The translations under genes and the position numbers were made by a program. Below are positions 2,610 through 16,201 of a stretch of DNA of 18,247 nt, one piece after another. The stretch is from assembly GCF_014672695.1 (NCBI RefSeq), contig NZ_CP053923.1, positions 951,827 through 970,073 of the forward strand. Reading direction: 5' to 3'. The notes beneath the pieces were generated by a model. It saw only the letters and a list, made by a program, of their open reading frames with translations, ran no database searches and was not told the DNA's origin. Each line of letters starts with the position of its first letter. Positions within the stretch are counted from its first letter, which is position 1. Source of the stretch: Defluviicoccus vanus (GTDB taxonomy: Bacteria; Pseudomonadota; Alphaproteobacteria; Rhodospirillales; Defluviicoccaceae).

Positions 2610-3062
2610 GGCCAGCGGACATCGTGCCGCGCAAAACAGGCCGGACACACGACTGCCATCGCACCAGATCAGATTTTCTCCCCCTCACCCCTTGCACCCA
2701 GGGGGCCGTCCACACACAGGCTACGGCTTGCTGAAGGCTAACTGCCGGGCGACCTGGCAGATGTCGAGGCATTCTTCGCCGACCCGCCACCGGACGGCGT
2801 GCATCGCTGCGAGACCACCGACGCCGACCACGGCCGGATCGAGGCTCGCCGGCATGCGGTGAGCCATGACGTCGCCTGGCTCGCGTCGGACCGCCGATAT
2901 CCCGATGAAACGGCGATGCCGGGGCTCGCCGCCGTCGCCATGGTCGAGGCGACGTTGCGGATGGTCCGACGCCTTCGCACGCTCCATCCCCTGCCAAATG
3001 CGATAGCCGTGCGCCCTACGCTAGCTTCACTTGTGCTCCGGCGCCACTTAAAATATTCCTGA
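2610..3062 (+). pseudogene. ISAs1-family (H-repeat-associated) transposase remnant: 5'-truncated, frameshifted and internally deleted
   Basis: The frame open from 2742 reads LADVEAFFADPPPDGVHRCETTDADHGRIEARRHAVSHDVAWLASDRRYPDETAMPGLAAVAMVEATLR. This follows the ISAs1 pattern (L..DV..FF.D.......DHGRIE.R...VS.D..WL........PGL.A..MVE). Upstream pieces lie in other frames: TTAIAPDQI from 2649 and YGLLKAN from 2722. A taa at 2739-2741 interrupts the frame. Both ends are approximate. Confidence 0.6.
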
Positions 3063-3172
3063 GCGCTCAGACGTGTGGGGACAAAGGCTGCTCCTGTGCC
3101 CTATCAGGGCCTAACGGACCCAGCTTCGAGAATGCGGGCTTCCTTATTAGCAAACAGTAGTTGAGGGGGGCT

Positions 3173-4255
3173 ATGTCAATTAACGGAACTGTTTTCATCT
3201 CTTACGTCAAAGAAGATGCAAAGATTGCAATGCGCATCTATCGCGATTTACGGGGAAATAAAATCGATGCGTGGATAGATAGCGAATGCCTTAAGCCTGG
3301 TAGTGACTGGAGCGCAGAAATTCAGCGCGTTATAGACGATAGCCGTTATTTCATACTTGTCGTGTCCCGCACATCAGTCTACAAGATTGGTCATTATCAA
3401 GCAGAAACCAAAGCTGCCTTAAAGAAACTTGAGCGTTTTCCGTTTGGTAACGTATTTATTATCCCGGTGCGCGTCGAAGAAGTTGAAATAAGCCATCCTG
3501 ATATAAGAAAGTTACATATCATTGACTTATTTCCCTACAAGCAGGGAATGAGAAAAATTCTGCAACATATATCCATAAATGACGACAAATTGGCAAAGCA
3601 AGGAGAAGCGCTTATCAGAAAACTCACTACCAATGGTATTTCTCCTGAGCAGGCTACGAGAGAAATTTGTTCGTTGTTAGTTTCAAACCCGAAGCTTACG
3701 CAGAGGGAAAAAGATATATGCCAGCAGCTTATGCATTGTCTAGATAAGGGGTACGCTAGAAATCAAAAGGAGATATACATACGTATCGGACTGCTTTATG
3801 CCTTGCTTGAGGGGATTAATAAAGTAATTGACTCGGCGATAGAAGGAAGTAATGGATCATCGCGGACGCAGGCCCCTGCGGGTAATACGGTCGAGCCCCA
3901 CCCTTCTGTACGTGGAGAACCACAAAGTTCTCCATCAACGGATCAAGCTTCTCCCTCACCTCTCTCTGATGTTACCCCCGAGCCGCCTAGAACTACTTCT
4001 GCTGAGGGCGAAATATTTTTGCGGAAGCCATCTCCGTCTTTTCGGCCCGCGCCTAGCTCACAGGCTCCTCGGGTTGGACACGCGCCGCGAGTTCCGCATT
4101 CAGCAGGGCCAATGCACGTTACCCCGCCTTCCTCACCGTTTGTCAACCAACTAAGCGGAGATAGCTTACAATACTCTGATTTATCGGGTTTTGGACTATC
4201 TGGGCACATTGCGGACCAAGCGGTGCGGTCGGCGGGGAGGCCACCCGCAGCCTAG
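3173..4255 (+). CDS. TIR-domain protein (360 aa as annotated): N-terminal TIR, a helical middle region of unknown function and a Pro/Ser-rich low-complexity tail
   Basis: ATG at 3173 lies 6 nt after GAGG (3163-3166). The listed ORF uses TTG at 3161. Residues 1-130 show the bacterial TIR layout: VFISYVKEDAKIAMRIYRDLRGNKIDAWIDSECLKPGSDWSAEIQRVIDDSRYFILVVS...YQAETKAALKK...VFIIPVRVEE. The tail SSRTQAPAGNTVEPHPSVRGEPQSSPSTDQASPSPLSDVTPEPP... is low complexity. GC is far below the flanks. Confidence 0.85.
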   Translation: MSINGTVFISYVKEDAKIAMRIYRDLRGNKIDAWIDSECLKPGSDWSAEIQRVIDDSRYFILVVSRTSVYKIGHYQAETKAALKKLERFPFGNVFIIPVRVEEVEISHPDIRKLHIIDLFPYKQGMRKILQHISINDDKLAKQGEALIRKLTTNGISPEQATREICSLLVSNPKLTQREKDICQQLMHCLDKGYARNQKEIYIRIGLLYALLEGINKVIDSAIEGSNGSSRTQAPAGNTVEPHPSVRGEPQSSPSTDQASPSPLSDVTPEPPRTTSAEGEIFLRKPSPSFRPAPSSQAPRVGHAPRVPHSAGPMHVTPPSSPFVNQLSGDSLQYSDLSGFGLSGHIADQAVRSAGRPPAA

Positions 4256-4347
4256 CTGAGCACGGCGCATCCAACGTCGTTGAGCATGCTATTGATAAGG
4301 GCGGACGAGCGATTGCGAGCGAAGTTGCGAACCAATCGATCCAGGCC

Positions 4348-4578
4348 TTGACCGAAAACGCAGCGCAGGTTGGCAATACTGTAGTCGAAGGCGTCGCACA
4401 TGAAACGATTACAAAGGTTGTCGGCGAAATTGCAGATAGTGCCGCCGTTACAGCTGTTGAGAAAGCGCTACATTGGTTGATTGAAAAGGTGATTTACGGA
4501 TTCATCTCTCTAATAATTTTCGTCGCGTTATACGTAGTACATCATGTTTGGGACTACATAATGTCACTCTTCGGATGA
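4348..4578 (+). CDS. Small hypothetical protein with a C-terminal transmembrane helix (76 aa from TTG), or the 3' part of a frameshifted TIR gene
   Basis: The frame is open from 4180. The first canonical start is TTG at 4348, with no visible Shine-Dalgarno and no in-frame ATG until near the end. The product has an Ala/Val/Glu-rich helical-looking stretch followed by VIYGFISLIIFVALYVVHHVW (about 4489-4548). Coding status as a separate gene is uncertain. Confidence 0.4.
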   Translation: MTENAAQVGNTVVEGVAHETITKVVGEIADSAAVTAVEKALHWLIEKVIYGFISLIIFVALYVVHHVWDYIMSLFG

Positions 4579-4617
4579 CGAAAAGATAATCGAAATGGTA
4601 ATCGCATTGACCTACCC

Positions 4618-4626
4618 CTTCCCTCC
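4618..4626. repeat. Left copy of the 9-bp target-site duplication CTTCCCTCC of the IS4-family element
   Basis: An identical 9-mer at 5922-5930 directly abuts the other inverted repeat. Confidence 0.8.
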
Positions 4627-5921
4627 CTCATCAATCCCCTCATTTAAGCTATGTTCGTCAGTTGGGCGGTGATTGGTTTGTTTTTTAGCATTTCGAGGAA
4701 CCTTTCGATCAACGGCCGGAGGCGGGGTTCGGGCATGGCCGGGATGAGGTCGTAGAGCATGCAGCCCTGGCGGAACAGGGAATGGGTTCGGCGTTTGGCG
4801 GTGTTGACCTTGAGGTGGCGGTCCATGCCGAGCGCTTCGCCGGCCTCGCCGAGCAGGGTGAGGAACAGCACGGCGAAGGCGTTGAGCAGGAGCAGGCGGT
4901 CGCGGCGCTGCGGATCGCCGATGCGCACGGCGCCGAGCCCCATGCCGAAGCGCAGATCCTTGGTGTCGCGGAAGCTGGGCTCGATGGTCCAGCGTCTGGC
5001 GTAGAGGTTGACGATTTCGCGGGCCGATGCGTCTGCCTTGCTCGTCGCCAAACACCAGGGCTCCTTCATCGCCTTGGCGTGGACACAGACGACGGCGCCG
5101 ACCGGTTGCGCGGCGGCAGTGACCGAGGCGCCGCGCAGATGGCGCGCCCGGCCGCCCTTGCCGACCCACTCGGCCGCCGCCCGGCTTTCTCCGTCGGCGG
5201 CGTCGACGCGGATGTCGCCGCGGAACCGGATGACATAGGCGAAGCCCAATTTCGTCAGATAATCGAACAGTTTGCGGTCGCCGAAGCCGCGGTCGGCGAG
5301 GATCGTCGCCGTCGTCCCCGCCGGCAACACCCCGGCAAGGCGGCCGAGACACGCATCCTCGATGGCGTTGCGCTGGCCCGCCAGTTCCGCCTTCAGCATC
5401 GTCAGCCACAACAGCGGCGTCGCCCGGCCGTGCCCGGTCACCAGATTGAGCGCCAGCGTCGCCTGCCCGTCGGCGTCGAAATCGGTCCAGTCCATGGCGA
5501 CGACGATTTCCTTGCGGCCGCCAACCGCCTCCGGAACCCATTGCCCGAACATCTCCCAGACGGAGACGCCGGCGTTGCTCAGCAGCCTGTCGACCTGTTT
5601 GACCGCATGCTTGGTCAGCAATCCCCGCGCCTGCGCCAACGCATGGCCGATCATCGAAACCGCCAGCGACGCACCGGTCATCACCCCCAGCGTGCCGTTG
5701 GCCAGCGACGCGATCCGTTTGGCGTGAACATGCCCCGCGAAAACCCCATCAAGAAACCGACGAACGTCGGTCAAACGAAACTCAGGACGCGCTACCCCGT
5801 TCACTTCCCCACCCCAACCCTCGAAACCTTCCTCTCACCCTGCATAACCGACCGCCGCCGCAAAGCTCATCCGTAGCAACCCATTGATCCGTATCAAAAC
5901 TCAAAATGAGGGGATTCCTGA
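4627..5921 (-). mobile_element. Complete IS4-family insertion sequence (1295 bp)
   Basis: Terminal inverted repeats are ctcatcaatcccctcattt (4627-4645) and the reverse complement of 5903-5921, ttcaggaatcccctcattt, matching at 16 of 19 positions. They are flanked by a perfect 9-bp direct repeat. The element carries a single transposase ORF whose stop codon lies inside the 4627-4645 repeat. Confidence 0.85.
4644..5804 (-). CDS. IS4-family DDE transposase (386 aa)
   Basis: The listed ORF contains ILADRGFGD and the Y(2)R(3)E(6)K signature in YARRWTIEPSFRDTK. It is compact and fills the IS. The overlapping + strand ORFs (4782..5876 and others) are GC-driven shadows. Confidence 0.92.
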   Translation of the reverse strand: MNGVARPEFRLTDVRRFLDGVFAGHVHAKRIASLANGTLGVMTGASLAVSMIGHALAQARGLLTKHAVKQVDRLLSNAGVSVWEMFGQWVPEAVGGRKEIVVAMDWTDFDADGQATLALNLVTGHGRATPLLWLTMLKAELAGQRNAIEDACLGRLAGVLPAGTTATILADRGFGDRKLFDYLTKLGFAYVIRFRGDIRVDAADGESRAAAEWVGKGGRARHLRGASVTAAAQPVGAVVCVHAKAMKEPWCLATSKADASAREIVNLYARRWTIEPSFRDTKDLRFGMGLGAVRIGDPQRRDRLLLLNAFAVLFLTLLGEAGEALGMDRHLKVNTAKRRTHSLFRQGCMLYDLIPAMPEPRLRPLIERFLEMLKNKPITAQLTNIA

Positions 5922-5930
5922 ACTTCCCTC
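5922..5930. repeat. Right copy of the 9-bp target-site duplication CTTCCCTCC
   Basis: See 4618-4626. It lies 3 nt from the mfd stop codon (5934-5936). Confidence 0.8.
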
Positions 5931-5933
5931 CCC

Positions 5934-8900
5934 CTACCCCTTCACCGCCCCCTTCCCCTTCGCGATCTTTGCCAGTTCGCCGACCAGGGCGCGGACGCCG
6001 ACCAGCCGGTCCTTCGACGTCTCCCAGTCGCGGCGGAAGACCAGTTTCTGGTCGGGGCGAAGTTTGCAGGTGTTGGCTTGGCGGCTGATGAACCGGACCA
6101 GTCCCGCAGGATCGGCGAACAGGTTGTTGCGGAAGGCGATCACCGCCCCCTTCGGTCCGGCGTCGATCTTCTCGATCCCTGCCTCGCGGCAGTAGCGCTT
6201 GATCGCCACCACCTGCAGCAGGTTGTTCACCTCGTCCGGCAGCGGGCCGAAGCGGTCGATCAGCTCCGCGGCAAAGCCCTCAAGCTCCGCGCGGCTGCCC
6301 ACGTCGGCTAGTCGGCGGTAGAGGCCGAGCCTGAGCCCCAGGTCGGGGACGTATGGTTCGGGGATCAGCACGCTTAGCCCGAGCGCGATCTGCGGACTCC
6401 ACTCCTCGCTCCCCGCCTCGGTATCGCCGCGCGCCGTCGCCACCGCCTCCTCCAGCATCTGCTGGTAGAGCTCGATGCCCACCTCGCGGATGTGCCCCGA
6501 CTGCTCGTCGCCCAACAGGTTGCCGGCGCCGCGGATGTCGAGGTCATGGCTGGCGAGGGTGAAACCGGCGCCCAGCGCATCCAGCGCCTGCATCACCGAC
6601 AGCCGCTTCTCCGCCGCCGGCGTCAGCTTCTTGCGCGGCGGCAGCGTCAGGTAGGCGTAGGCACGCAGCTTGCCCCGCCCCACCCGGCCGCGCAGCTGAT
6701 AGAGCTGCGCCAAGCCGAACATGTCGGCACGATGGATGACGATGGTGTTGACCGTCGGCAGGTCGAGGCCGGACTCGATGATGTTGGTGGACAACAGCAC
6801 GTTGTAGCCGCCCTCGTAGAAGGCGCCGACGGCGGCCTCCAGGTCCTTCACCGACATCCGGCCGTGGGCGCGCACCACCGTCACCTCCGGGACCAGCGCC
6901 GTCAGCATCGTCGTCAACTCGTCCAGGTCCTCGATCCGTGGGCAGACGTAAAAGGTCTGACCGCCGCGCAGCAGGTGCTCGCGCAGGATCGCTTCGCGGA
7001 TCACCACCGGATCGAACTCGCTGACGAAGGTGCGCACGGCGAGACGGTCCACCGGCGGCGTGGTGATCAGGCTGAGCTCGCGCACCCCGGACAGCGCCAT
7101 CTGCAAGGTGCGCGGGATCGGCGTCGCGGTGAGGGTGAGGACGTGGACGTCGGCCTTGAGCTTTTTGAGCTGCTCCTTGTGGGCGACGCCGAAGTGTTGC
7201 TCCTCGTCGATGATCAGCAGGCCCAGATCGCGAAAGCGCACATCCTTGGCCAGCAGCGCGTGCGTGCCGACGACGATATCCACCGTCCCCTCCGCCAGCT
7301 CCTTTTTCACCGCCTTGGCGGCGGCGGTGGAAACAAACCGCGACAGCTCAGCGATGCGCACCGGAAAGCCACGGAAGCGCTCGCTGAAGGTGCGGTGATG
7401 CTGGCGACAAAGCAGCGTCGTCGGGACGACCACCGCCACCTGGCGGCCTTCCAGGGCCACCACGAAGGCCGCCCGCAATGCCACCTCGGTCTTGCCAAAG
7501 CCCACGTCGCCGCACACGAGGCGGTCGGTCGGCCGGCCGCTGCCGAGATCGGCGACCACGTCTTCGATCGTCTTCAACTGGTCGTCGGTCTCGGTGAAGG
7601 GAAAGCGGGCGCAGAACTCGTCGAAGGGTCCCGACAGCGGTGCCGCCGCGGGCGCCTCCTTCAGTGCCCGGGCAGCGGCAACGCGGATCAGTTCATCGGC
7701 GATCAGGCGGATGCGCTGCTTCATCCGCGCCTTGCGCGCCTGCCAGGCGCCGCCACCCAGCTTGTCGAGGGCGACACCGTCGCCGTCGGAGCCGTAGCGG
7801 CTGATCATCTCGATGTTCTCCACCGGCAGGTAGAGCTTGTCGTTGCCGGCGTAGATGAGCCTGAGGCAGTCGTGCGGTGCACCGCCCACCGCCAGCGTCT
7901 CCAGACCTTCGTAGCGACCGATGCCGTGGTCCACGTGCACCACCAGATCACCCTGAGAGAGTGAGGTCGCCTCGGTGAGGAAATGCTCCGGTTTCGCCCG
8001 CCGGGCGCCACGCCGCACCAGCCGGTCGCCGAGAATATCCTCCTCGGTAATCACCGTCAGATCGGTGGCGACGAAGCCGCGCTCCAGCGGCAGCATGGCG
8101 AAGGCCACCTGCTTCACCGCCAGCTTTTCCGCCTCAGCCCAACCGGCAACGCTGCAGGTGCCGCGCAGACCGTGTTCGGTCAGCAGCGCGAGCAGGCGTT
8201 CACGCGAGCCGCGGCTGACGGCGGCGACCAGGACCCGCCGGCCAGCCTGCTGATGCTCGCGGATACGCTGGATGACCGCTTCGAAGACATTGCTGTCCGG
8301 GCGCTTGCGAGCTTCAGCGAAATCGAGGCCGGAGCGGCCGCCGGCGTCCCACACCCGCCGCTCGGCCTCCGGCATGGCGAAGGGCGACAGCACGGTGACC
8401 ATCCGTTGCGCCAGCGCCGCATCAAGGCCGTCGCGATCGAGAAACAGGCTTTCGGGCGACACCGGGTAGTAGGGTGCGGCGCCGGCAGCGAACCGGCCGG
8501 CATCGATCGTCCGTCGTGCCTGATAATAGTCGGCAACCGCTTCCAGCCGGGTAGCGACTGCGTCCTCCACTTGATGATCGACCACCACCGACGCTGCCGG
8601 CAGATAATCGAACACCGTCTCCAGCCGTTCATGAAACAGCGGCAGCCAATGCTCCATGCCGCTGTGGCGATGCCCGGCGGAAACGGCAGTATACAGCGGA
8701 TCGTCGGCGACGGCGGTGCCCGCCAGCAGCCGATAGCCGGCGCGGAAGCGACGAATGCTGGCCGGATCGAGCCGCACCTCGCTCACCGGCCGCAGGTCCA
8801 CTGCCTCCACCTTCCCCGTCGTCCGCTGGCTGGTCAGATCGAAGGTGCGCAGGCTCTCCACCTCATCGCCGAATAGGTCGATCCGCACCGGCTCGGTCCG

Positions 8901-9431
8901 GCCGCTGGGGAAGACATCGACGATGCCGCCGCGGACGGCGCACTCTCCCGCCTCGCTCACCGTCTCCACCCGCACGTAGCCGTTCGCCTGCAGGAAGGTG
9001 ATGAGGTCTTCGAGGTTGATCGGATCCCCGCGGCTGACGACGAAGCTGGACAAGGCCCAGATGTCGCGCGGTGGCACCCGCTGAAGCACGGCGGCGACCG
9101 TCGTCAGGACGATCCGCGGCCGGTCGGGCTTCGCCTTCGCCGCCAAGCTCGCCAGCGCATCCACCCGGCGGCTGACGATCTCCGGATGCGGAGAGGCCCG
9201 ATCGTAGGGCAGGCAGTCCCAGGCGGGCAGTTCGATCCGCTCCACGTCCGGCGCGAAGAAATCGAGACCTTCGGCCAGGCGCACCAGGCGCACGTCGTCG
9301 CGGGCGATCAGCAGGGCGCCGGCAGGCGACAGCCGGGCGAGCTGGCCGATGATCCGTGCATCATGCCCCGCAGGCGCACCGGCGATGAGCGCGCGGCCGC
9401 CCTGGGCAACAAGGTCAGCGAGGGTCGTCAA
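5934..9431 (-). CDS. mfd: Transcription-repair coupling factor Mfd (1165 aa)
   Basis: Superfamily-2 helicase motifs are CGDVGFGKTEVA, LLIIDEEQHFGV, LTLTATPIPRTL and QLYQLRGRVGRG. The length, the UvrB-homology-like N-terminal region and the C-terminal domain all fit Mfd. The start is TTG at 9431, 4 nt after the stop of the upstream DUF339 gene, so the two may be translationally coupled. Confidence 0.97.
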   Translation of the reverse strand: MTTLADLVAQGGRALIAGAPAGHDARIIGQLARLSPAGALLIARDDVRLVRLAEGLDFFAPDVERIELPAWDCLPYDRASPHPEIVSRRVDALASLAAKAKPDRPRIVLTTVAAVLQRVPPRDIWALSSFVVSRGDPINLEDLITFLQANGYVRVETVSEAGECAVRGGIVDVFPSGRTEPVRIDLFGDEVESLRTFDLTSQRTTGKVEAVDLRPVSEVRLDPASIRRFRAGYRLLAGTAVADDPLYTAVSAGHRHSGMEHWLPLFHERLETVFDYLPAASVVVDHQVEDAVATRLEAVADYYQARRTIDAGRFAAGAAPYYPVSPESLFLDRDGLDAALAQRMVTVLSPFAMPEAERRVWDAGGRSGLDFAEARKRPDSNVFEAVIQRIREHQQAGRRVLVAAVSRGSRERLLALLTEHGLRGTCSVAGWAEAEKLAVKQVAFAMLPLERGFVATDLTVITEEDILGDRLVRRGARRAKPEHFLTEATSLSQGDLVVHVDHGIGRYEGLETLAVGGAPHDCLRLIYAGNDKLYLPVENIEMISRYGSDGDGVALDKLGGGAWQARKARMKQRIRLIADELIRVAAARALKEAPAAAPLSGPFDEFCARFPFTETDDQLKTIEDVVADLGSGRPTDRLVCGDVGFGKTEVALRAAFVVALEGRQVAVVVPTTLLCRQHHRTFSERFRGFPVRIAELSRFVSTAAAKAVKKELAEGTVDIVVGTHALLAKDVRFRDLGLLIIDEEQHFGVAHKEQLKKLKADVHVLTLTATPIPRTLQMALSGVRELSLITTPPVDRLAVRTFVSEFDPVVIREAILREHLLRGGQTFYVCPRIEDLDELTTMLTALVPEVTVVRAHGRMSVKDLEAAVGAFYEGGYNVLLSTNIIESGLDLPTVNTIVIHRADMFGLAQLYQLRGRVGRGKLRAYAYLTLPPRKKLTPAAEKRLSVMQALDALGAGFTLASHDLDIRGAGNLLGDEQSGHIREVGIELYQQMLEEAVATARGDTEAGSEEWSPQIALGLSVLIPEPYVPDLGLRLGLYRRLADVGSRAELEGFAAELIDRFGPLPDEVNNLLQVVAIKRYCREAGIEKIDAGPKGAVIAFRNNLFADPAGLVRFISRQANTCKLRPDQKLVFRRDWETSKDRLVGVRALVGELAKIAKGKGAVKG

Positions 9432-9435
9432 TGAC

Positions 9436-9702
9436 TTACGGGATATACTGGAAGTTGAGCAGCCGCTGCATGACCGGATGTTCGAGCTCGGGCGGGTAGG
9501 GTGTCTTGCCGGTCATCCAGGCGTTGAGGTCGATGTCGTTGTGGTCCATCAACAGCCGCTCCAACCACTCCACCTCTGCGTCGGACAAGGACGGCAGATG
9601 CCGGTCGACAAACGCCCCGAACAGGATATCGTTTTCCTTCATCCCCGTATGGTGGCTGCGAAACACCACGCGCTTGCGGCGTGTTTCGGCGGTATCAACC
9701 AT
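9436..9702 (-). CDS. sdhE: Succinate dehydrogenase assembly factor 2 / SdhE-like (DUF339) protein (88 aa)
   Basis: These are the last 88 codons of listed ORF 9436..10980. ATG at 9702..9700 is preceded by gaggagagagaga. The product, MVDTAETRRKRVVFRSHHTGMKENDILFGAFVDRHLPSLSDAEVEWLERLLMDHNDIDLNAWMTGKTPYPPE, resembles Sdh5/SdhE (compare RGMLENDILL in eukaryotic SDHAF2). As far as I recall, the position between recG and mfd is the usual alphaproteobacterial arrangement. Confidence 0.8.
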   Translation of the reverse strand: MVDTAETRRKRVVFRSHHTGMKENDILFGAFVDRHLPSLSDAEVEWLERLLMDHNDIDLNAWMTGKTPYPPELEHPVMQRLLNFQYIP

Positions 9703-9774
9703 TCTCTCTCTCCTCAAGGCCGGCCGTAGGATATAGAGGCGCCTTACCCCTCTTGTCAGCCGTTTCGACCACGG

Positions 9775-11856
9775 ATGCGCCCGGAAGTTCTCTACCCCCT
9801 TTTTGCCCCTGTGCGCAGCCTGCCAGGGGTCGGAGCTCAACTGGAGACGACGCTGACCCGTCTCGCCGGATCGCGCGTGCTCGATCTCCTGTGGCATCTG
9901 CCGGTGACCATCGTCGAACGACGACGCCTGGCTAGCCTGGCCGACGCCGGCGCCGGCCCCGTCATTCTCTCCCTTCGCATCGACGAGCACGAAGCACCGC
10001 GATCGCCACGGCATCCCTATCGCGTCTGGTGCTCGGACGACAGCGGCAACACCACAGCCCTCGTCTTCTTCCACGCCCGGCCGGACTACCTGCAGCGGGT
10101 GCTGCCTCCGGGCGAGGTTCGCCTCGTCAGCGGCGTTCTCGATCGTTACGGCGAAACGGCGCAGATCACCCACCCCGACTACATCGTCGGCGCGGACGAG
10201 GCGGACTCGATCCCGCAGATCGAGACGATCTATCCGCTTGCCACCGGCCTCAGCGGCAAGGTGCTGCGTCGCCTCGTCGGCGCGGCGCTGCAGCGTGCCC
10301 CCGCGCTCGACGAATGGCTTGATCCGGCGCTCGTCCGCCAGCGCGGCTGGCCCCACTGGCGAGACGCGCTGGCACTGCTGCATGCCCCGGCCGACGCGAC
10401 GGTGCTCGAACCCACCTCGCTGCCGCGCTGCCGCCTCGCCTACGATGAACTGCTGGCCAACCAGCTGGCGCTGGCGGTGATGCGCGGTCATCTGAAGCGG
10501 CAGCCGGGGCGGGCGCTGCGCGGCGACGGCCGGCTGCGCCGCCGCCTGCTTGCCTCCCTGCCCTTCCCGCTCACCGCCGCCCAGACCGCCGCGGCGGCGG
10601 AGATCGACACCGACATGCAGGCGCCAACGCGGATGCTGCGGCTGCTGCAGGGTGACGTGGGCAGTGGCAAGACAGTGGTGGCACTGCTGGCGATGCTGGC
10701 GGCGGTGGAGACCGGTGCCCAGGCAGTCCTGATGGCACCGACGGAACTCCTCGCCCGCCAGCACGGTGAAACCCTTGGCCGCTTTGCCAAGAGCCTCGGC
10801 CTCACCGCCGCGGTGCTCACCGGCCGGGAGAAGGGTGCACCACGCGAGCGGCTGCTGACCGCTCTGGCCGAGGGGACGATCAACATCGTCGTCGGCACCC
10901 ACGCGCTGTTCCAGGAAAGCGTTGCCTTTGCCGATCTGGCGCTGGTGGTGATCGACGAGCAGCACCGCTTCGGTGTCCACCAGCGGCTGAGCCTGGCGGG
11001 CAAGGGTGCCGCCGCCGACGTCCTGGTGATGACCGCCACGCCGATCCCGCGCACCCTGATGCTGGCGGCCTACGGCGATCTCGATGTCTCCCGGCTGGAA
11101 GAAAAGCCGCCCGGCCGCACCCCAATCGTCACCCGCGCTATTCCCCTTGACCGACTAGAGGAGGTGGTCGCCGCTGTCGGCCGTTCGTTGGCCAGGGGTG
11201 ACCGCGTCTACTGGGTCTGCCCTCTGGTCAGTGTGTCCGAGACCCTCGACGTGGCGGCAGCAGAGGAACGTTTTGCCACCCTGCACGAGAGCTTCGGCGA
11301 TCGTGTCGGTCTGCTGCATGGTCGGATGAGTGCGGCTGAGAAGGACAAGACGATGGCCGCCTTCGTCGCCGGCCGGATTGCGGTGCTGGTCGCCACCACG
11401 GTCATCGAGGTGGGCGTCGATGTGCCGGAAGCGACGGTGATGGTCATTGAGCACGCCGAGCGGTTCGGACTTGCCCAACTGCACCAGCTGCGTGGCCGCG
11501 TCGGCCGCGGTGAAGGCCAATCGTCGTGCCTGCTGCTTTACGCGCCGCCGCTCACCGCCACCGCCCACGCCCGCCTCGCCATCCTGCGCGAGACCGACGA
11601 CGGCTTTCGCATCGCCGAGGAAGACCTGCGTCTGCGCGGTGCCGGCGAGCTGCTCGGCGTCCGCCAGAGTGGCCTGCCCACCTTCCGCGTCGCCGATCTG
11701 GCAGCGCACGCCGACCTGCTACCGATTGCCCGCGACGATGTGCAGCTGATCCTCGGCCGCGACCCGGACCTGGAGAGCCCGCGCGGGCGGGCGCTACGTA
11801 CCCTGCTCTACCTGTTCGAACGCGATGCTGCCGTCGGCTATCTGCGCTCTGGCTGA
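9775..11856 (+). CDS. recG: ATP-dependent DNA helicase RecG (693 aa)
   Basis: Helicase motifs are QGDVGSGKTVVA, VVIDEQHRFGV, VMTATPIPRTL and QLHQLRGRVGRG. An N-terminal wedge/OB-like region is present. The gene is divergent from sdhE across a 72-bp spacer. Confidence 0.97.
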   Translation: MRPEVLYPLFAPVRSLPGVGAQLETTLTRLAGSRVLDLLWHLPVTIVERRRLASLADAGAGPVILSLRIDEHEAPRSPRHPYRVWCSDDSGNTTALVFFHARPDYLQRVLPPGEVRLVSGVLDRYGETAQITHPDYIVGADEADSIPQIETIYPLATGLSGKVLRRLVGAALQRAPALDEWLDPALVRQRGWPHWRDALALLHAPADATVLEPTSLPRCRLAYDELLANQLALAVMRGHLKRQPGRALRGDGRLRRRLLASLPFPLTAAQTAAAAEIDTDMQAPTRMLRLLQGDVGSGKTVVALLAMLAAVETGAQAVLMAPTELLARQHGETLGRFAKSLGLTAAVLTGREKGAPRERLLTALAEGTINIVVGTHALFQESVAFADLALVVIDEQHRFGVHQRLSLAGKGAAADVLVMTATPIPRTLMLAAYGDLDVSRLEEKPPGRTPIVTRAIPLDRLEEVVAAVGRSLARGDRVYWVCPLVSVSETLDVAAAEERFATLHESFGDRVGLLHGRMSAAEKDKTMAAFVAGRIAVLVATTVIEVGVDVPEATVMVIEHAERFGLAQLHQLRGRVGRGEGQSSCLLLYAPPLTATAHARLAILRETDDGFRIAEEDLRLRGAGELLGVRQSGLPTFRVADLAAHADLLPIARDDVQLILGRDPDLESPRGRALRTLLYLFERDAAVGYLRSG

Positions 11857-11940
11857 CCCGGACCTGGATTTCCCTGTCGAGAGCAGGTAGACCGCGCGCG
11901 TGGTTTCCTGTGAGGCAGCACAAGGGACAGAGCAGCAGCG

Positions 11941-12918
11941 ATGGGCGTCGAACTGAACGACAATCGCGGGCTGATTTGCGGGTTCGCGCTGCAGCCCGAT
12001 GCGAGTGCCACGCCCCTGGACGCCGCGGCGATCGATCGCTTGGCGCCTTCGCCCGCCAACCCGGTCTGGTTGCACTTCAATTACAATGACGGGCGTGCCC
12101 GCGACTGGATCGCCAACTGTCCCTGGATCGCCGAAGAAGGGCGCGAGGCGCTGCTCGTTGCCGACCACAGCATCCGCTTCGAGACCGCCGGCAGCGGAAT
12201 CTTCATCGTCCTTGGCGAAGCGTACGCCGATGATCGCGAAAGCTTCGGCGTCTTCAATGTCTATCTGGACCGCCACTGCATGGTGACCACGCGGCGTCAC
12301 CAGTTGACCGCCATCGGCAAGCTGCGCAACGATCTGGCGCAGGGGTTGGCCCTCAGTAACACCACCGCCCTCTTCCTGCGCCTTCTCGAGCACAAGGCAG
12401 CCACCTTCGCGAAGTCAACGCAGGACTGCATCGAGGCTCTCGACGATTTCGAAGAACTGGTGTTTTCCGGCCACTTCCGCCGGGCCAGCAATCTAGGACG
12501 GGAGCGCCAGCTGATGGCGCGCGTGCGTCGCCAGCGGGCTGGCAACCGTCAGGCGATGGGCGAGATGCTGGAGCACCCGCCCACCTGGTGGGACGAGGAG
12601 GCAACGATGGATCTGCGTCGCGCCATTGCCCGCCTGACCTCCACCGCCCAGGATCTCGACCTCGCCGCCGACCGCGCCCGGCTGCTCAGCGAGGAAATCG
12701 ACAGCCGGATGAACGAGGCGACCAACCGTAACCTTTATTTCGTCTCCGTGCTTGCCGCCGTATTCCTGCCGATCACGCTGATCTCAGGCGTCTTCGGCAT
12801 GAACGTCGGCGGCCTGCCCTGGGTCGAGGATCCGTACGGCTTCTTCTGGACCATGCTGCTGATGGCGGGCGCGATCCTGACGGTGCTATGGTTCCTGCGC
12901 CGGCGCGGCATTTTCTGA
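11941..12918 (+). CDS. zntB: CorA-superfamily divalent cation transporter, ZntB-like (325 aa)
   Basis: The C-terminus, YFVSVLAAVFLPITLISGVFGMNVGGLPW...FFWTMLLMAGAILTVLWFL, has two transmembrane helices with the GMN signature between them. The N-terminal soluble domain is of ZntB-like length. Confidence 0.8.
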   Translation: MGVELNDNRGLICGFALQPDASATPLDAAAIDRLAPSPANPVWLHFNYNDGRARDWIANCPWIAEEGREALLVADHSIRFETAGSGIFIVLGEAYADDRESFGVFNVYLDRHCMVTTRRHQLTAIGKLRNDLAQGLALSNTTALFLRLLEHKAATFAKSTQDCIEALDDFEELVFSGHFRRASNLGRERQLMARVRRQRAGNRQAMGEMLEHPPTWWDEEATMDLRRAIARLTSTAQDLDLAADRARLLSEEIDSRMNEATNRNLYFVSVLAAVFLPITLISGVFGMNVGGLPWVEDPYGFFWTMLLMAGAILTVLWFLRRRGIF

Positions 12919-13836: not shown

Positions 13837-14191
13837 GGGCACTTATGAAAGGATATTACCGTTGGAGTTTGAACTCTAGCCTCGCCTCGCCGTGCTGCCA
13901 ACCCCTATCGTGCGAGCGTCTCAGCTTGCGGAAGGGCCGTGTTTCGCCATAAGGAGACTCGTGGGCGCGCCGATTGCGAACTCGGGTGGTGTGCGTTGTC
14001 GGAGGTTAAGCGGACGCTGCACGGTGGATTGAAGCGAAGCTTGATCAGCATAGTCTTTTCGGGCGACAACGTTCGGGTAGATCGGGCCTTTGACCATTCC
14101 GACCGACGCGCGCTGTCCGGCCGGCGCGATCGCATCGCCGGACAGAATCCAGATCATCGGCCATTTCTCTCGGGACGGGGGTCGTCGAACA

Positions 14192-16201
14192 ATGCCTATC
14201 ACTCGAAAGCTCTGGCTCAGTCTCCTAGCGCTCGGTGCCGCCATCATGGCCCCAACGCCTCCGGCGTCTGCGCAGTCGATGCTCCAAGGGCAGGTCCTCG
14301 GCGCGGGCGCGCCGATCGCCGAGTCCACCGTGACCTTATGGGCGGCGAGTCCGGGCGCGCCGAAACAGTTGGCACAGGCGCGCACCGGCACTGACGGCCG
14401 GTTCACGCTCACCGAAGACGGGGCGCCCACCCAGGATTCGATCCTTTATGTCATCGCCAAGGGTGGTATTCCATCGGCCAATAAGGCCGGCGGCAACAAT
14501 CCGGCGATCGCGCTGATGACCGTGCTGGGGACGACGGCGCCAAAGACCGTAACCATCAACGAACTCACCACCGTGGCCTCGGCGTTTACCGCCGCGCGCT
14601 TCATCACCGGGGAATTGATCTCCGGGAACGGGCTCGGACTGCGGATTGCCGCCGGGAACGTGCCCAACCTGGTGGACCCGGCGACCGGCGGGTGGGGCAA
14701 AGTGCTCCTGGATCCGCTCAACAGCACCCAAACCACGACGCTCGCGAACCTGGACACACTCGGCTCGCTGATCTCCGCTTTCTTCACCGTGGCGAACGAC
14801 GATTGGCGCGCGCGCTTCCTCAAGTCCGCAACCCCAACCGGCGGCGCGACCCCCAAGACCACCCTCGAGGCGATGGCGGGCATTGCCCGCGAGCCGTGGG
14901 CCCACCCTCAGGATCTCTTCGCGCTGTTCGAAGAAGCCTACCCGCAGCCGAAGGATGGCGCCCGGCGAGAGGCGCCGTTCGTGCCATACCTTGCCTGGAC
15001 CCCGCCCGACTTCGCCCTCAGCCTCTGTTTCGCGGGCGGCGGGGTGTACGCCAATGGCCGGTTCATGTTCGATGCGGACGGCAACCTGTGGAGCGGCCAG
15101 AACTGGATGCCCGGCTCCCAATCCGGCGTTCGCAAGAGCATCGGTGGCGGCGTGGTCAAGTTCACCCCCAACGGGATTCCGCTCTCCCCGCCGATCACCG
15201 GCTTCACCGGCATGGGCATAGACGGAGTCGGCTGGGGTACCGCGGTTACGCTCGACAAGGTCTGGATCACCAGCTTCAACGGCAAAATCCTGGTGATGGA
15301 CCTCAACGGCAAACCGATCGGCTCGGAGAGCGACTTCCCCTTCAAAGAGAAGTTCCTCGGCCTGATGGGCGTCGGTGTCGCGGCGAACGGCGACGTCTGG
15401 ATTGCCGATGGCTCGGACAACCAGTTGCTGCACTTCCCCGGCGGCCGAGTGAAGGACGGACGGATCGTCAAGGTCGCGGGGCTGAAGTCTCCCTTCGACA
15501 TCGTCATCGACGCGCAAAATCGAGTCTGGGTCGCCAACTCCCAGTCGGACACGGTCGTGCGGTTCCCGGCCGACGATCCCACGAAGGTGGAATCCTTCCG
15601 GGCCGGAATCAGTGTCCGCGGCCTTGCACTCGACTCGAAGAGTAACGTCTGGGTGGCGAGCCTTCTCTCGCTGGACTTCCCGGTACCGCACATTCCCGAC
15701 GGCGCATCCATCATGGAGCAGTTCGGGCTCCTGGCTGGAGCCGCTCTGCATTATCCCCACCCAACCGGATTGGTCAGCATGATCCGCCCCGACGGCACGC
15801 AACCCGTGCCGACGGGCTTCACTGGCGGCGGCGCCGTCGATATCCCGTGGGGCCTGAACATCGACGGCAATGACGACGTCTGGGTCGCCAATCTATCGCC
15901 TCGTACAAGGGCCGTGGTGCTGATGGCCGGCGCCGACCCGAAGGGTCACCCCGCAGGCACGAAAACCGGCGACGTCATCCATATGTTCGAGGGCGGCAGT
16001 ATCCAGATGCTCACCGACGTGGCGATCGATCCGGCCGGCAATGTCTGGGCGGCAAACAACTGGAATGTCCCCGAAGCGGCGGTCGGCGACCCTCCGGTCT
16101 ACCGCACGTCGACCTGGGGCGGTGGGTCGGGCTTCACGATCATCTATGGCGTGGCGGCCCCGGTGAAGCCGCCACGGATCGGCGAAGTGCGCAAACCGTA
16201 G
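14192..16201 (+). CDS. Secreted hypothetical protein with a C-terminal NHL-like beta-propeller repeat region (669 aa)
   Basis: This is the internal ATG of listed ORF 14090..16201. From 14192 the product starts MPITRKLWLSLLALGAAIMAPTPPASAQS, a Sec-type signal peptide. A short beta-sandwich-like segment follows (LQGQVLGAGAPIAESTVTLWAA...TGTDGRFTL). Repeated blade-like motifs are DVWIADGSDNQLLHF, NRVWVANSQSDTVVRF, NVWVASL, DVWVANLS and NVWAANNWN. The family assignment is only approximate. Confidence 0.7.
   Translation: MPITRKLWLSLLALGAAIMAPTPPASAQSMLQGQVLGAGAPIAESTVTLWAASPGAPKQLAQARTGTDGRFTLTEDGAPTQDSILYVIAKGGIPSANKAGGNNPAIALMTVLGTTAPKTVTINELTTVASAFTAARFITGELISGNGLGLRIAAGNVPNLVDPATGGWGKVLLDPLNSTQTTTLANLDTLGSLISAFFTVANDDWRARFLKSATPTGGATPKTTLEAMAGIAREPWAHPQDLFALFEEAYPQPKDGARREAPFVPYLAWTPPDFALSLCFAGGGVYANGRFMFDADGNLWSGQNWMPGSQSGVRKSIGGGVVKFTPNGIPLSPPITGFTGMGIDGVGWGTAVTLDKVWITSFNGKILVMDLNGKPIGSESDFPFKEKFLGLMGVGVAANGDVWIADGSDNQLLHFPGGRVKDGRIVKVAGLKSPFDIVIDAQNRVWVANSQSDTVVRFPADDPTKVESFRAGISVRGLALDSKSNVWVASLLSLDFPVPHIPDGASIMEQFGLLAGAALHYPHPTGLVSMIRPDGTQPVPTGFTGGGAVDIPWGLNIDGNDDVWVANLSPRTRAVVLMAGADPKGHPAGTKTGDVIHMFEGGSIQMLTDVAIDPAGNVWAANNWNVPEAAVGDPPVYRTSTWGGGSGFTIIYGVAAPVKPPRIGEVRKP

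Follow-up and report, generated by a model that had tools for sequence, protein, structure and literature searches.

Several Toll/interleukin-1 receptor (TIR) domains have been characterised as NADases, those of SPARTA, SARM1 and AbTir among them. These act as NAD+ glycohydrolases or cyclases, and their active sites are formed by head-to-tail oligomers. The catalytic residue is a glutamate, which is E77 in SPARTA and E642 in SARM1. Replacing the former with alanine (E77A) gives a catalytically dead SPARTA (PMC9097488). TIR-type effectors are also found in NTP-dependent conflict systems, where small, mostly all-alpha effector-associated domains (EADs) couple them homotypically to a core NTPase (PMC7159879). 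According to Kaur et al. 2020, such a non-enzymatic adaptor is attached to an effector and occurs a second time on the core component, in some cases at another place in the genome (PMC7159879). Here we describe a TIR gene of Defluviicoccus vanus and the small open reading frame (ORF) behind it. Both lie in a stretch of 18,247 nucleotides (contig NZ_CP053923.1, positions 951,827 to 970,073), which is called the window from here on.

The TIR gene, ORF1 (3173-4255, + strand), encodes 360 amino acids: a TIR domain, a helical region that resembles nothing else, and a disordered tail rich in proline and serine. Downstream of it is ORF2 (4348-4578, +), 76 amino acids from a TTG start. An initial annotation, made from the sequence alone, had seen in this pair a candidate NAD-targeting defence or abortive-infection module, and every sequence feature it listed is present where it had been placed. 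The reading we favour, with about evenly balanced confidence, is that of a solitary TIR effector gene that has become stranded and is in early decay, and not that of a complete defence system. ORF1 and ORF2 most likely descend from a single tail-anchored TIR gene of ~468 amino acids that a 1-nt frameshift has split.

That the ORF1 product is a TIR protein was already known. NCBI annotates a ‘toll/interleukin-1 receptor domain-containing protein’ (Defluviicoccus vanus) that is 100% identical to the 360-aa product and that also begins at the ATG at 3173. This ATG is favoured over the TTG at 3161 that is listed for the same frame, because it is preceded, at a distance of 2 nt, by the Shine-Dalgarno-like GAGGGGGG (3163-3170, +), as read from the sequence. 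New here are only the unmatched tail and the probable ancestry as a tail-anchored protein running from TIR to transmembrane helix.

The TIR domain spans residues 7-133 (3191-3571, +) according to Pfam, the AlphaFold2 (AF2) model and Foldseek. It had been recognised by eye from the motifs FISY, LKPGSDW and FILVVS and from a glutamate in YQAETKAAL, all of which are there. A search with profile hidden Markov models bears this out far beyond chance. The match of Pfam TIR_2 (PF13676) takes in residues 7-129 and profile positions 1-121 of 122; its E is about 1.7e-22, and its 80.6 bits exceed the curated gathering cut-off of 28. The AF2 model of the ORF1 product was built with 118 relatives, and its predicted local distance difference test score (pLDDT) is mostly >90 in the TIR domain. 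The fold is predicted to be the flavodoxin-like one of alternating beta strands and alpha helices. Foldseek returned 72 matches in the PDB at E<=1e-3, and of the matches listed, 50 out of 50 are TIR-domain chains. The best of these is SPARTA TIR-APAZ (E 4.5e-7, root mean square deviation 1.7-2.0 A over ~136 columns), followed by SARM1, MyD88 and AbTir.

Sequence comparison leads to the same place. Among solved structures, SPARTA TIR-APAZ chains are the best sequence matches of the protein, and a 119-member family profile also puts them first (E 1.9e-14), then 3h16 and the AbTir chains 7uwg and 8g83. The profile also matches the chains 4lzp and 4c7m. We take 3h16, deposited as ‘TIR protein’, to be PdTIR of Paracoccus, and 4lzp and 4c7m are presumably Brucella TIR proteins. 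By sequence and predicted fold, this is a canonical TIR domain that is closest to the NADase TIR of SPARTA TIR-APAZ.

The putative catalytic residue is Glu78, numbered from the ATG and encoded at 3404-3406 (+), within GHYQAETKAAL. At least 90% of the 119 relatives in the family alignment (A2) have it. The family profile places its column on E77 of CrtSPARTA TIR-APAZ, which agrees with where the catalytic glutamate had been put by eye; the placement is one of sequence alignment, not of superposed active sites.

SPARTA TIR-APAZ (8qlp, 8i87, 8spo, 8isy) is then the closest described system, being the best match for this TIR in PADLOC, in PDB sequences and in fold. By analogy, with E77 aligned to Glu78, an NADase switched by oligomerisation would be expected. 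The likeness stops at about residue 135, where the PADLOC, PDB and Foldseek matches all end. An APAZ domain was not found in the D. vanus protein, the C-terminal part of which is unrelated to anything known. The window does not contain a pAgo gene, and the neighbours are insertion sequence (IS) elements, mfd, sdhE and recG.

In PADLOC, the models that match best are those of SPARTA ‘Aga_TIR-PNTD’ proteins, in their TIR part (E 2.8e-11, model positions 5-129 of 430). Weaker matches are SAVED_TIR (E 2.7e-7), ThsB (E 7e-4) and TIR-TM (E 2.6e-3), and there is also bSEFIR. Every one of these is limited to the TIR domain. This protein does share its TIR fold, and the general logic of abortive infection by way of NAD, with the TIR effectors of Thoeris (ThsB), CBASS and Pycsar and with those of the PADLOC TIR-TM model, but the scores are far under those of true members and only ~60 TIR residues are covered. 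For Thoeris, beyond the ThsB models, NCBIfam ThcB4 reaches 17.9 bits against a cut-off of 220, and there is no ThsA-like ORF in the window. For CBASS and Pycsar only the TIR part of SAVED_TIR matches; the protein lacks SAVED, STING and nucleotide-binding domains and the window lacks a cyclase. For the TIR-TM effectors (PDLC03016) the match is weak and confined to the TIR. As sequenced, the transmembrane helix of D. vanus is in another frame, but a coding signal spans the gap and a single added G joins the two frames.

The D. vanus gene sits between four insertion sequences and has no partner in the window. Specifically, no SIR2, Macro, cyclase, SAVED, Argonaute or STAND gene was found in these 18 kb, in line with the initial annotation, which had already remarked on the lack of a ThsA-like SIR2 or Macro partner, of a cyclase and of SAVED.

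Beyond the TIR comes an all-alpha region, residues 122-226 (3536-3850, +). AF2 models it as four helices (122-152, 158-170, 177-191 and 198-226) with pLDDT of 76-88; when the helical domain is modelled on its own, pLDDT is 70.5. The ~95-aa helical region had been called unassignable, and this it still is: it has no relative in Pfam, in fold or in sequence. The Pfam scan gave no match, and this includes the EAD and bDLD models. It had been suggested that the structure be predicted and searched for; this yielded the four helices but no match in the PDB, where the best Foldseek result has E 0.74 and a template modelling (TM) score <0.45. Mcl-1, RFC lid domains and designed helical bundles were considered as folds and dropped (E >=0.74, TM score <0.45).

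An exhaustive HMMER search with residues 132-235 against 1.84 billion representative proteins found no true relative besides the query itself. Four giant repeat proteins did come up with E from 1e-11 to 7e-6. These are sum-of-repeats artefacts, because single stretches score only ~3 bits; one of the four has 12 tandem VWA domains. Searching proteins by k-mers with the whole sequence brought up nothing but the protein itself and two relatives that match in the TIR only. The helical domain is also not a diverged copy of the tail of another family member, as judged by phmmer, blastp and hhalign (probability <=1.5%). The comparison here was with five clusters of at least three members, four of them tails and one consisting of N-terminal extensions.

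The helices are followed by a Pro/Ser-rich linker at residues 230-360 (3860-4252, +), which is predicted to be disordered. It has 23 prolines and 21 serines in 130 residues and pLDDT <50 over most of its length, so that composition and model agree with the ~130-aa low-complexity stretch described earlier. An out-of-frame artefact was also considered for this region and rejected. The GC content at third codon positions (GC3) is lowest in the annotated frame (0.45), as elsewhere in the island, while the alternative open frame at 3852-4154 would have a GC3 of ~0.65. The tail beyond the TIR is without a detectable relative anywhere that was searched.

The frames of ORF1 and ORF2 differ in the deposited sequence, and they do so too in Logan, an independent k-mer assembly. 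What separates them is an annotated intergenic segment of 92 nt (4256-4347, +), which is open in the ORF2 frame and has the three-base periodicity of ORF2. A three-periodic nucleotide model was trained on the body of ORF2 and applied to this segment, against a homogeneous background. The log-likelihood is +0.8 nats in the ORF2 frame, versus -14.9 and -19.0 in the other two, and the observed likelihood is reached by 4 of 5000 shuffles. The amino acids that the segment would encode (Ala, Glu, Gly, Ser, Val, Ile) continue the composition of ORF2. The open stretch of the ORF2 frame (frame 1) in fact starts at 4180, 56 codons upstream of the TTG and still within the end of ORF1. Between 4180 and 4348 this frame contains no ATG, GTG or TTG. 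A gap that has the coding periodicity of ORF2 but no start codon is the reason to think of one ancestral gene.

The maximum-likelihood position of the switch from ORF1 to ORF2 is 4252-4277, at the stop codon of ORF1. The most plausible site of a 1-nt frameshift would be a GGGG run (4234-4237, +) located 18 nt before that stop. Adding one G there creates a continuous 468-aa ORF, and a fused product would contain peptides spanning AVRSAGEATRSLAEH. If the shift occurred near 4234-4255, as seems to be the case, ORF1 ends five codons into the wrong frame, and ORF2 was left without a ribosome-binding site of its own. Programmed -1 frameshifting was tried as an explanation and rejected: a slippery heptamer of the form X XXY YYZ is absent from 4180-4252.

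CP053923.1 was assembled from Nanopore R9.4 reads, and its frameshifts were corrected with MEGAN/DIAMOND, only by homology to NR (PMC9041414). A correction based on homology is unable to repair an orphan region. One alternative is therefore that the gene is intact and that the frameshift is an assembly error. The protein would then be a 468-aa tail-anchored TIR, a self-contained abortive-infection NADase in which the helical domain is the sensor or oligomerisation switch. The GGGG run where a single extra G joins the frames fits this, as do the coding signal in the ‘intergenic’ segment, a correction that worked only where there were DIAMOND matches, and the existence of TIR-TM relatives. Against it stand two Logan contigs of run SRR14561395, which are 100% identical to the window and have the frames as deposited. 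The first of these is window 2702-4655 (1954 bases), and the second, of 6,886 bp, was compared over window 7775-12848 (5074 bases), so there are zero differences over ~7 kb. Contigs of 2-7 kb without a difference would not be expected from raw R9.4 k-mers, which suggests short-read support. The platform of SRR14561395 is judged here from contig quality. The frameshift is probably genuine, and we say so with some confidence. There is also no sensor or partner in the window. An intact gene through assembly error is therefore considered unlikely.

A broader version of this alternative would have the frameshift be either an assembly error or bypassed in translation. The result would be an intact single-gene, tail-anchored, NAD-depleting abortive-infection system of 468 aa, with the four-helix domain as direct sensor and as a new fold. 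We regard this as rather improbable.

The other alternative of this rank is that there are two genes, with a soluble TIR protein making or consuming a nucleotide and a separate 76-aa membrane protein as its partner or effector. The initial annotation had left the choice between such a minimal two-gene module and a self-contained membrane-tethered TIR. PGAP annotates two genes, and an independent gene caller run on the Logan contig also calls both. Pairs of a TIR and a transmembrane effector exist among known systems, and SLATT proteins are found near two of the relatives described below (loci L003 and L005).

ORF2 encodes an Ala/Val/Glu-rich helical segment and then, as had been noticed before, ends in one transmembrane helix. 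This is the 21-residue VIYGFISLIIFVALYVVHHVW (4489-4551, +), with a Kyte-Doolittle 19-mer mean of up to 2.08. Only 8 residues remain after it, which is tail-anchor geometry. A single transmembrane helix with an 8-residue exterior would be an anchor and not a pore-former. NCBI labels ORF2 a ‘hypothetical protein’, and it has no assignment in Pfam, PADLOC, PHROG or NCBIfam. Matches to NCBIfam T3SS translocon and capsid models were dismissed as compositional and are far below cut-off. Searched together with its upstream open extension, ORF2 finds only itself in the k-mer protein search, in metagenome contigs and in viral contigs. Its TTG is not preceded by a Shine-Dalgarno sequence, in contrast to the strong one before ORF1, and the coding signature reaches back from that TTG by 92 nt, into a stretch without a start codon.

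Whether the TIR ORF and the transmembrane ORF occur together elsewhere was also looked into: a conserved small transmembrane ORF is found downstream in 0 of 11 related loci. All this leaves the two-gene module with only a small chance of being right. The membrane-tethered single protein fits better, as the ancestral state, although the frames are now separate.

Relatives of the TIR are not hard to find. A profile of the three closest TIRs matches 297 proteins at E<=1e-8, of which the best 120 are listed. In total 122 proteins were compared, 119 of which are in alignment A2, with 118 relatives. The relatives among the best 120 measure 124-245 aa and are 35-47% identical. The few with names are Desulfobacterales or Desulfococcaceae, and the nearest are mostly from Desulfobacterales metagenomes. 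This short TIR_2 family (P0002, P0003 and P0009-P0127; Desulfobacterales and Anaerolineae) has 35-47% TIR identity and the conserved positions in common with the D. vanus protein, and also the plan of an N-terminal TIR with a small lineage-specific tail. It includes TIR-EAD7 effectors of NTPase-centred conflict systems (Kaur et al. 2020/2021). The D. vanus protein differs in being the longest of the 122, at 360 aa (468 when repaired). It also differs in coming from an Alphaproteobacterium and in having no STAND, vWA-MoxR, SIR2 or SLATT gene in the window.

Tails of at least 50 aa are present in 62 of the 118 relatives. They fall into many unrelated clusters, the largest of which has six members, and none is like the D. 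vanus tail. Extra Pfam domains are found in a minority: CSD in 6, EAD7, ACP and AsnC in 2 each, and RHH, STAS and TPR once each. Most of the family tails do not match Pfam at all. A transmembrane segment C-terminal to the TIR on the same chain occurs in 3 of 122 proteins (P0013, P0094 and P0049), and in P0013 and P0094 it is at or near the C-terminus. In this family hypervariable tails are usual, and fusions of a TIR to a transmembrane segment already exist.

The genes around the relatives are of a recognisable kind. L003 has SIR2_2, nSTAND1-NHL, further TIRs, SLATT_1 and transposases, L005 has SLATT_1, L006 an LRR-Roc-COR protein, and L002 an MmeI-like restriction-modification enzyme. In L007, EAD7, iSTAND, AAA_5, vWA and pentapeptide proteins adjoin a TIR-EAD7 fusion. 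L008-L011 contain an EAD7-TIR fusion, nSTAND1-TPR, a TIR-FGE-sulfatase fusion and a beta-propeller-bDLD1-trypsin protein. The NTP-dependent conflict systems described by Kaur et al. 2020 have this repertoire. It had been proposed that the D. vanus locus has the context of accessory defence cargo. The IS-rich accessory DNA and the conflict-system neighbourhoods of the relatives agree with this, while at the D. vanus locus itself no working system is indicated.

Some smaller observations on these loci may be useful to others. L003 and L005 have SLATT_1/DUF4231 genes within 1-4 kb of their TIR gene, and genes for small FUN14 membrane proteins are present in L003 and L004. In L003 (8732-9476 and 11420-11831), L004 and L005, gene calling splits many of the neighbours (SIR2_2, NHL, WD40, TIR) into short pieces in a row, which suggests long-read assemblies rich in frameshifts.

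These neighbourhoods raise another alternative, in which the helical domain is a lineage-specific effector-associated (Death-like) adaptor and would connect the TIR to a distant STAND or vWA-MoxR core. Close relatives are TIR-EAD7 fusions that adjoin EAD7, iSTAND, MoxR and vWA genes, and the adaptors of Kaur et al. 2020 (PMC7159879) resemble the D. vanus domain in being small, mostly all-alpha and non-enzymatic. The second copy that defines such adaptors was not found, however. The exhaustive HMMER search of 1.84 billion representatives has none in any organism, only the D. vanus protein itself (P0001) and the repeat-protein artefacts, and there is no NTPase in the window. With no match to the Pfam EAD and bDLD models, to a fold or to profiles of the family tail clusters either, this explanation is very unlikely.

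Least likely is a TIR outside of defence, which would either act on another organism as an adaptor or NADase (like Tcp, BtpA or PdTIR) or serve in housekeeping NAD metabolism: the family profile does match 3h16, 4lzp and 4c7m, but D. vanus is a free-living activated-sludge organism (PMC9041414), there is no secretion signal or secretion-system context, and the gene is strain-specific, foreign and IS-flanked, with relatives in conflict-system neighbourhoods.

The stranded, early-decay reading has its own weak spots. The single-gene inference comes down to a composition statistic over 31 codons and a missing start codon, and there is no fused homologue. ORF1, with its 360 codons in AT-rich DNA, is fully open and has lost none of the conserved TIR residues; this speaks against an advanced state of decay. 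The frameshift could be an assembly error that conceals an intact gene. A sensor partner could sit elsewhere in the 4.16-Mb genome, as the partner search covered the window. And finally, NADase activity, oligomerisation and membrane anchoring are all properties we infer for the D. vanus protein.

If a stranded effector it is, the ancestral layout would have been a cytoplasmic TIR, the orphan helical domain, a flexible linker, an Ala/Val/Glu-rich helix and a C-terminal membrane anchor. The long disordered linker and the anchor would have tethered the TIR and the helical domain at the inner membrane. By analogy with SPARTA, SARM1 and AbTir, the monomeric TIR would be inactive. Composite active sites would arise when the protein self-associates at the membrane, probably by means of the helical domain, which is the sole candidate for self-association or for binding of a trigger. 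Such sites may hydrolyse NAD+ or convert it to an ADP-ribose-derived signal, and the outcome would be growth arrest or abortive infection. The relatives are effector modules attached to STAND NTPase, vWA-MoxR, EAD, SIR2 or SLATT conflict systems. The D. vanus sequence as it now stands would yield a soluble TIR protein from ORF1, and efficient translation of ORF2 is unlikely.

The locus does not open a long-standing question. If the protein is active, it is a further case of TIR NADase modules being recombined with lineage-specific tails, here possibly with a membrane anchor, and a new module for oligomerisation or sensing could be present in the orphan helical domain. More generally, the hypervariable tails of the family could be a reservoir of undescribed adaptor domains. 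SPARTA-clade TIR effectors of bacteria rich in conflict systems (Desulfobacterales, Anaerolineae) can apparently reach unrelated genomes and become stranded there, sensorless, in IS hot spots. For users of long-read-only assemblies, small ‘hypothetical’ ORFs found 3’ of orphan genes may be frame-shifted pieces of the upstream gene.

The TIR locus was acquired horizontally, as indicated by its composition and by nearest relatives that are only 35-47% identical and mostly from Desulfobacterales metagenomes. The island (~3063-4627) has a GC content of 48.1%, versus 66.4% in the rest of the window. It had earlier been described as an island of ~38% GC. Values of roughly 38-41% do apply to 3150-3800 (0.413 as measured here) and 4401-4627 (0.423), but 3801-4400 is at 0.562, which leaves the whole at 0.481. 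This rise is because of Pro, Ala, Gly and Arg codons. GC3 is 0.41 in the TIR, 0.41 in the helical part, 0.45 in the Pro/Ser part and 0.48 in the ORF2 segment, so the island is compositionally uniform and foreign throughout. On the left, GC drops from 0.68 to 0.42 between 2900 and 3150.

The description of the island as wedged between IS remnants stands, and its boundaries can now be drawn more precisely. The left edge is an ISAs1-family transposase remnant (2799-3062, +; NCBIfam transpos_ISAs1, E 8.7e-5) that covers model positions 197-241 of 314 only. Left of this is an IS110-family transposase gene (1110-2471, +; Pfam Transposase_20 5.5e-23, DEDD_Tnp_IS110 6e-11). The right edge is an IS4-like element (4628-5921, -) with a DDE_Tnp_1 transposase at 4644-5804 and 18-nt terminal inverted repeats (pair I13). 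On both sides of this element there is the 10-bp direct repeat CTTCCCTCCC (4618-4627 and 5923-5932), which is likely its target-site duplication. Given this duplication, the island earlier directly abutted the 3’ end of mfd, with its stop codon at 5934. The element is apparently complete and inserted ~12 nt downstream of that stop codon. The short Logan contigs break ~27 nt inside it, which is consistent with several genomic copies.

The window begins with a DDE_5 (IS701-type) transposase fragment (1-650, -; E 7.4e-51) that runs off the window end. It adjoins a RelB/DinJ-type antitoxin gene (832-1095, -; Pfam RelB E 1.3e-23) without an evident toxin gene downstream. Possibly the antitoxin is an orphan; it may also belong to a toxin-antitoxin pair that was disrupted within this IS hot spot.

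No structured RNA was found in the window with Rfam, and promoter-like and terminator-like sites are no commoner than in shuffles. Links to plasmids and phages were looked for and rejected: with tblastn, plasmids matched only at the level of the TIR, in fusions with kinase or HEAT proteins, and the PHROG matches are marginal. A scan of contigs of GTDB species representatives with the 3-sequence alignment gave six distant loci and did not return D. vanus, while the scan pattern INGTVFISY is present in the D. vanus gene itself. The representative may be another assembly, or the island may be absent or masked there.

To the right of the IS4-like element are the housekeeping genes mfd, sdhE, recG and corA and a gene for an NHL-repeat protein. 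The latter (14090-16201, +) encodes 703 amino acids with weak NHL/beta-propeller signals around residues ~330-480; its N-terminal ~300 residues are unmatched and no NTPase signal was seen in it. L003 has an nSTAND1-NHL protein beside its TIR relative. A mechanically called 514-aa ORF (9436-10980, -) is mostly spurious. Only its residues 436-510 match Sdh5/SdhE, and an independent gene call has an 88-aa gene at this part. The remainder overlaps recG (9775-11856, +), which is the shadow-ORF pattern typical of high-GC DNA.

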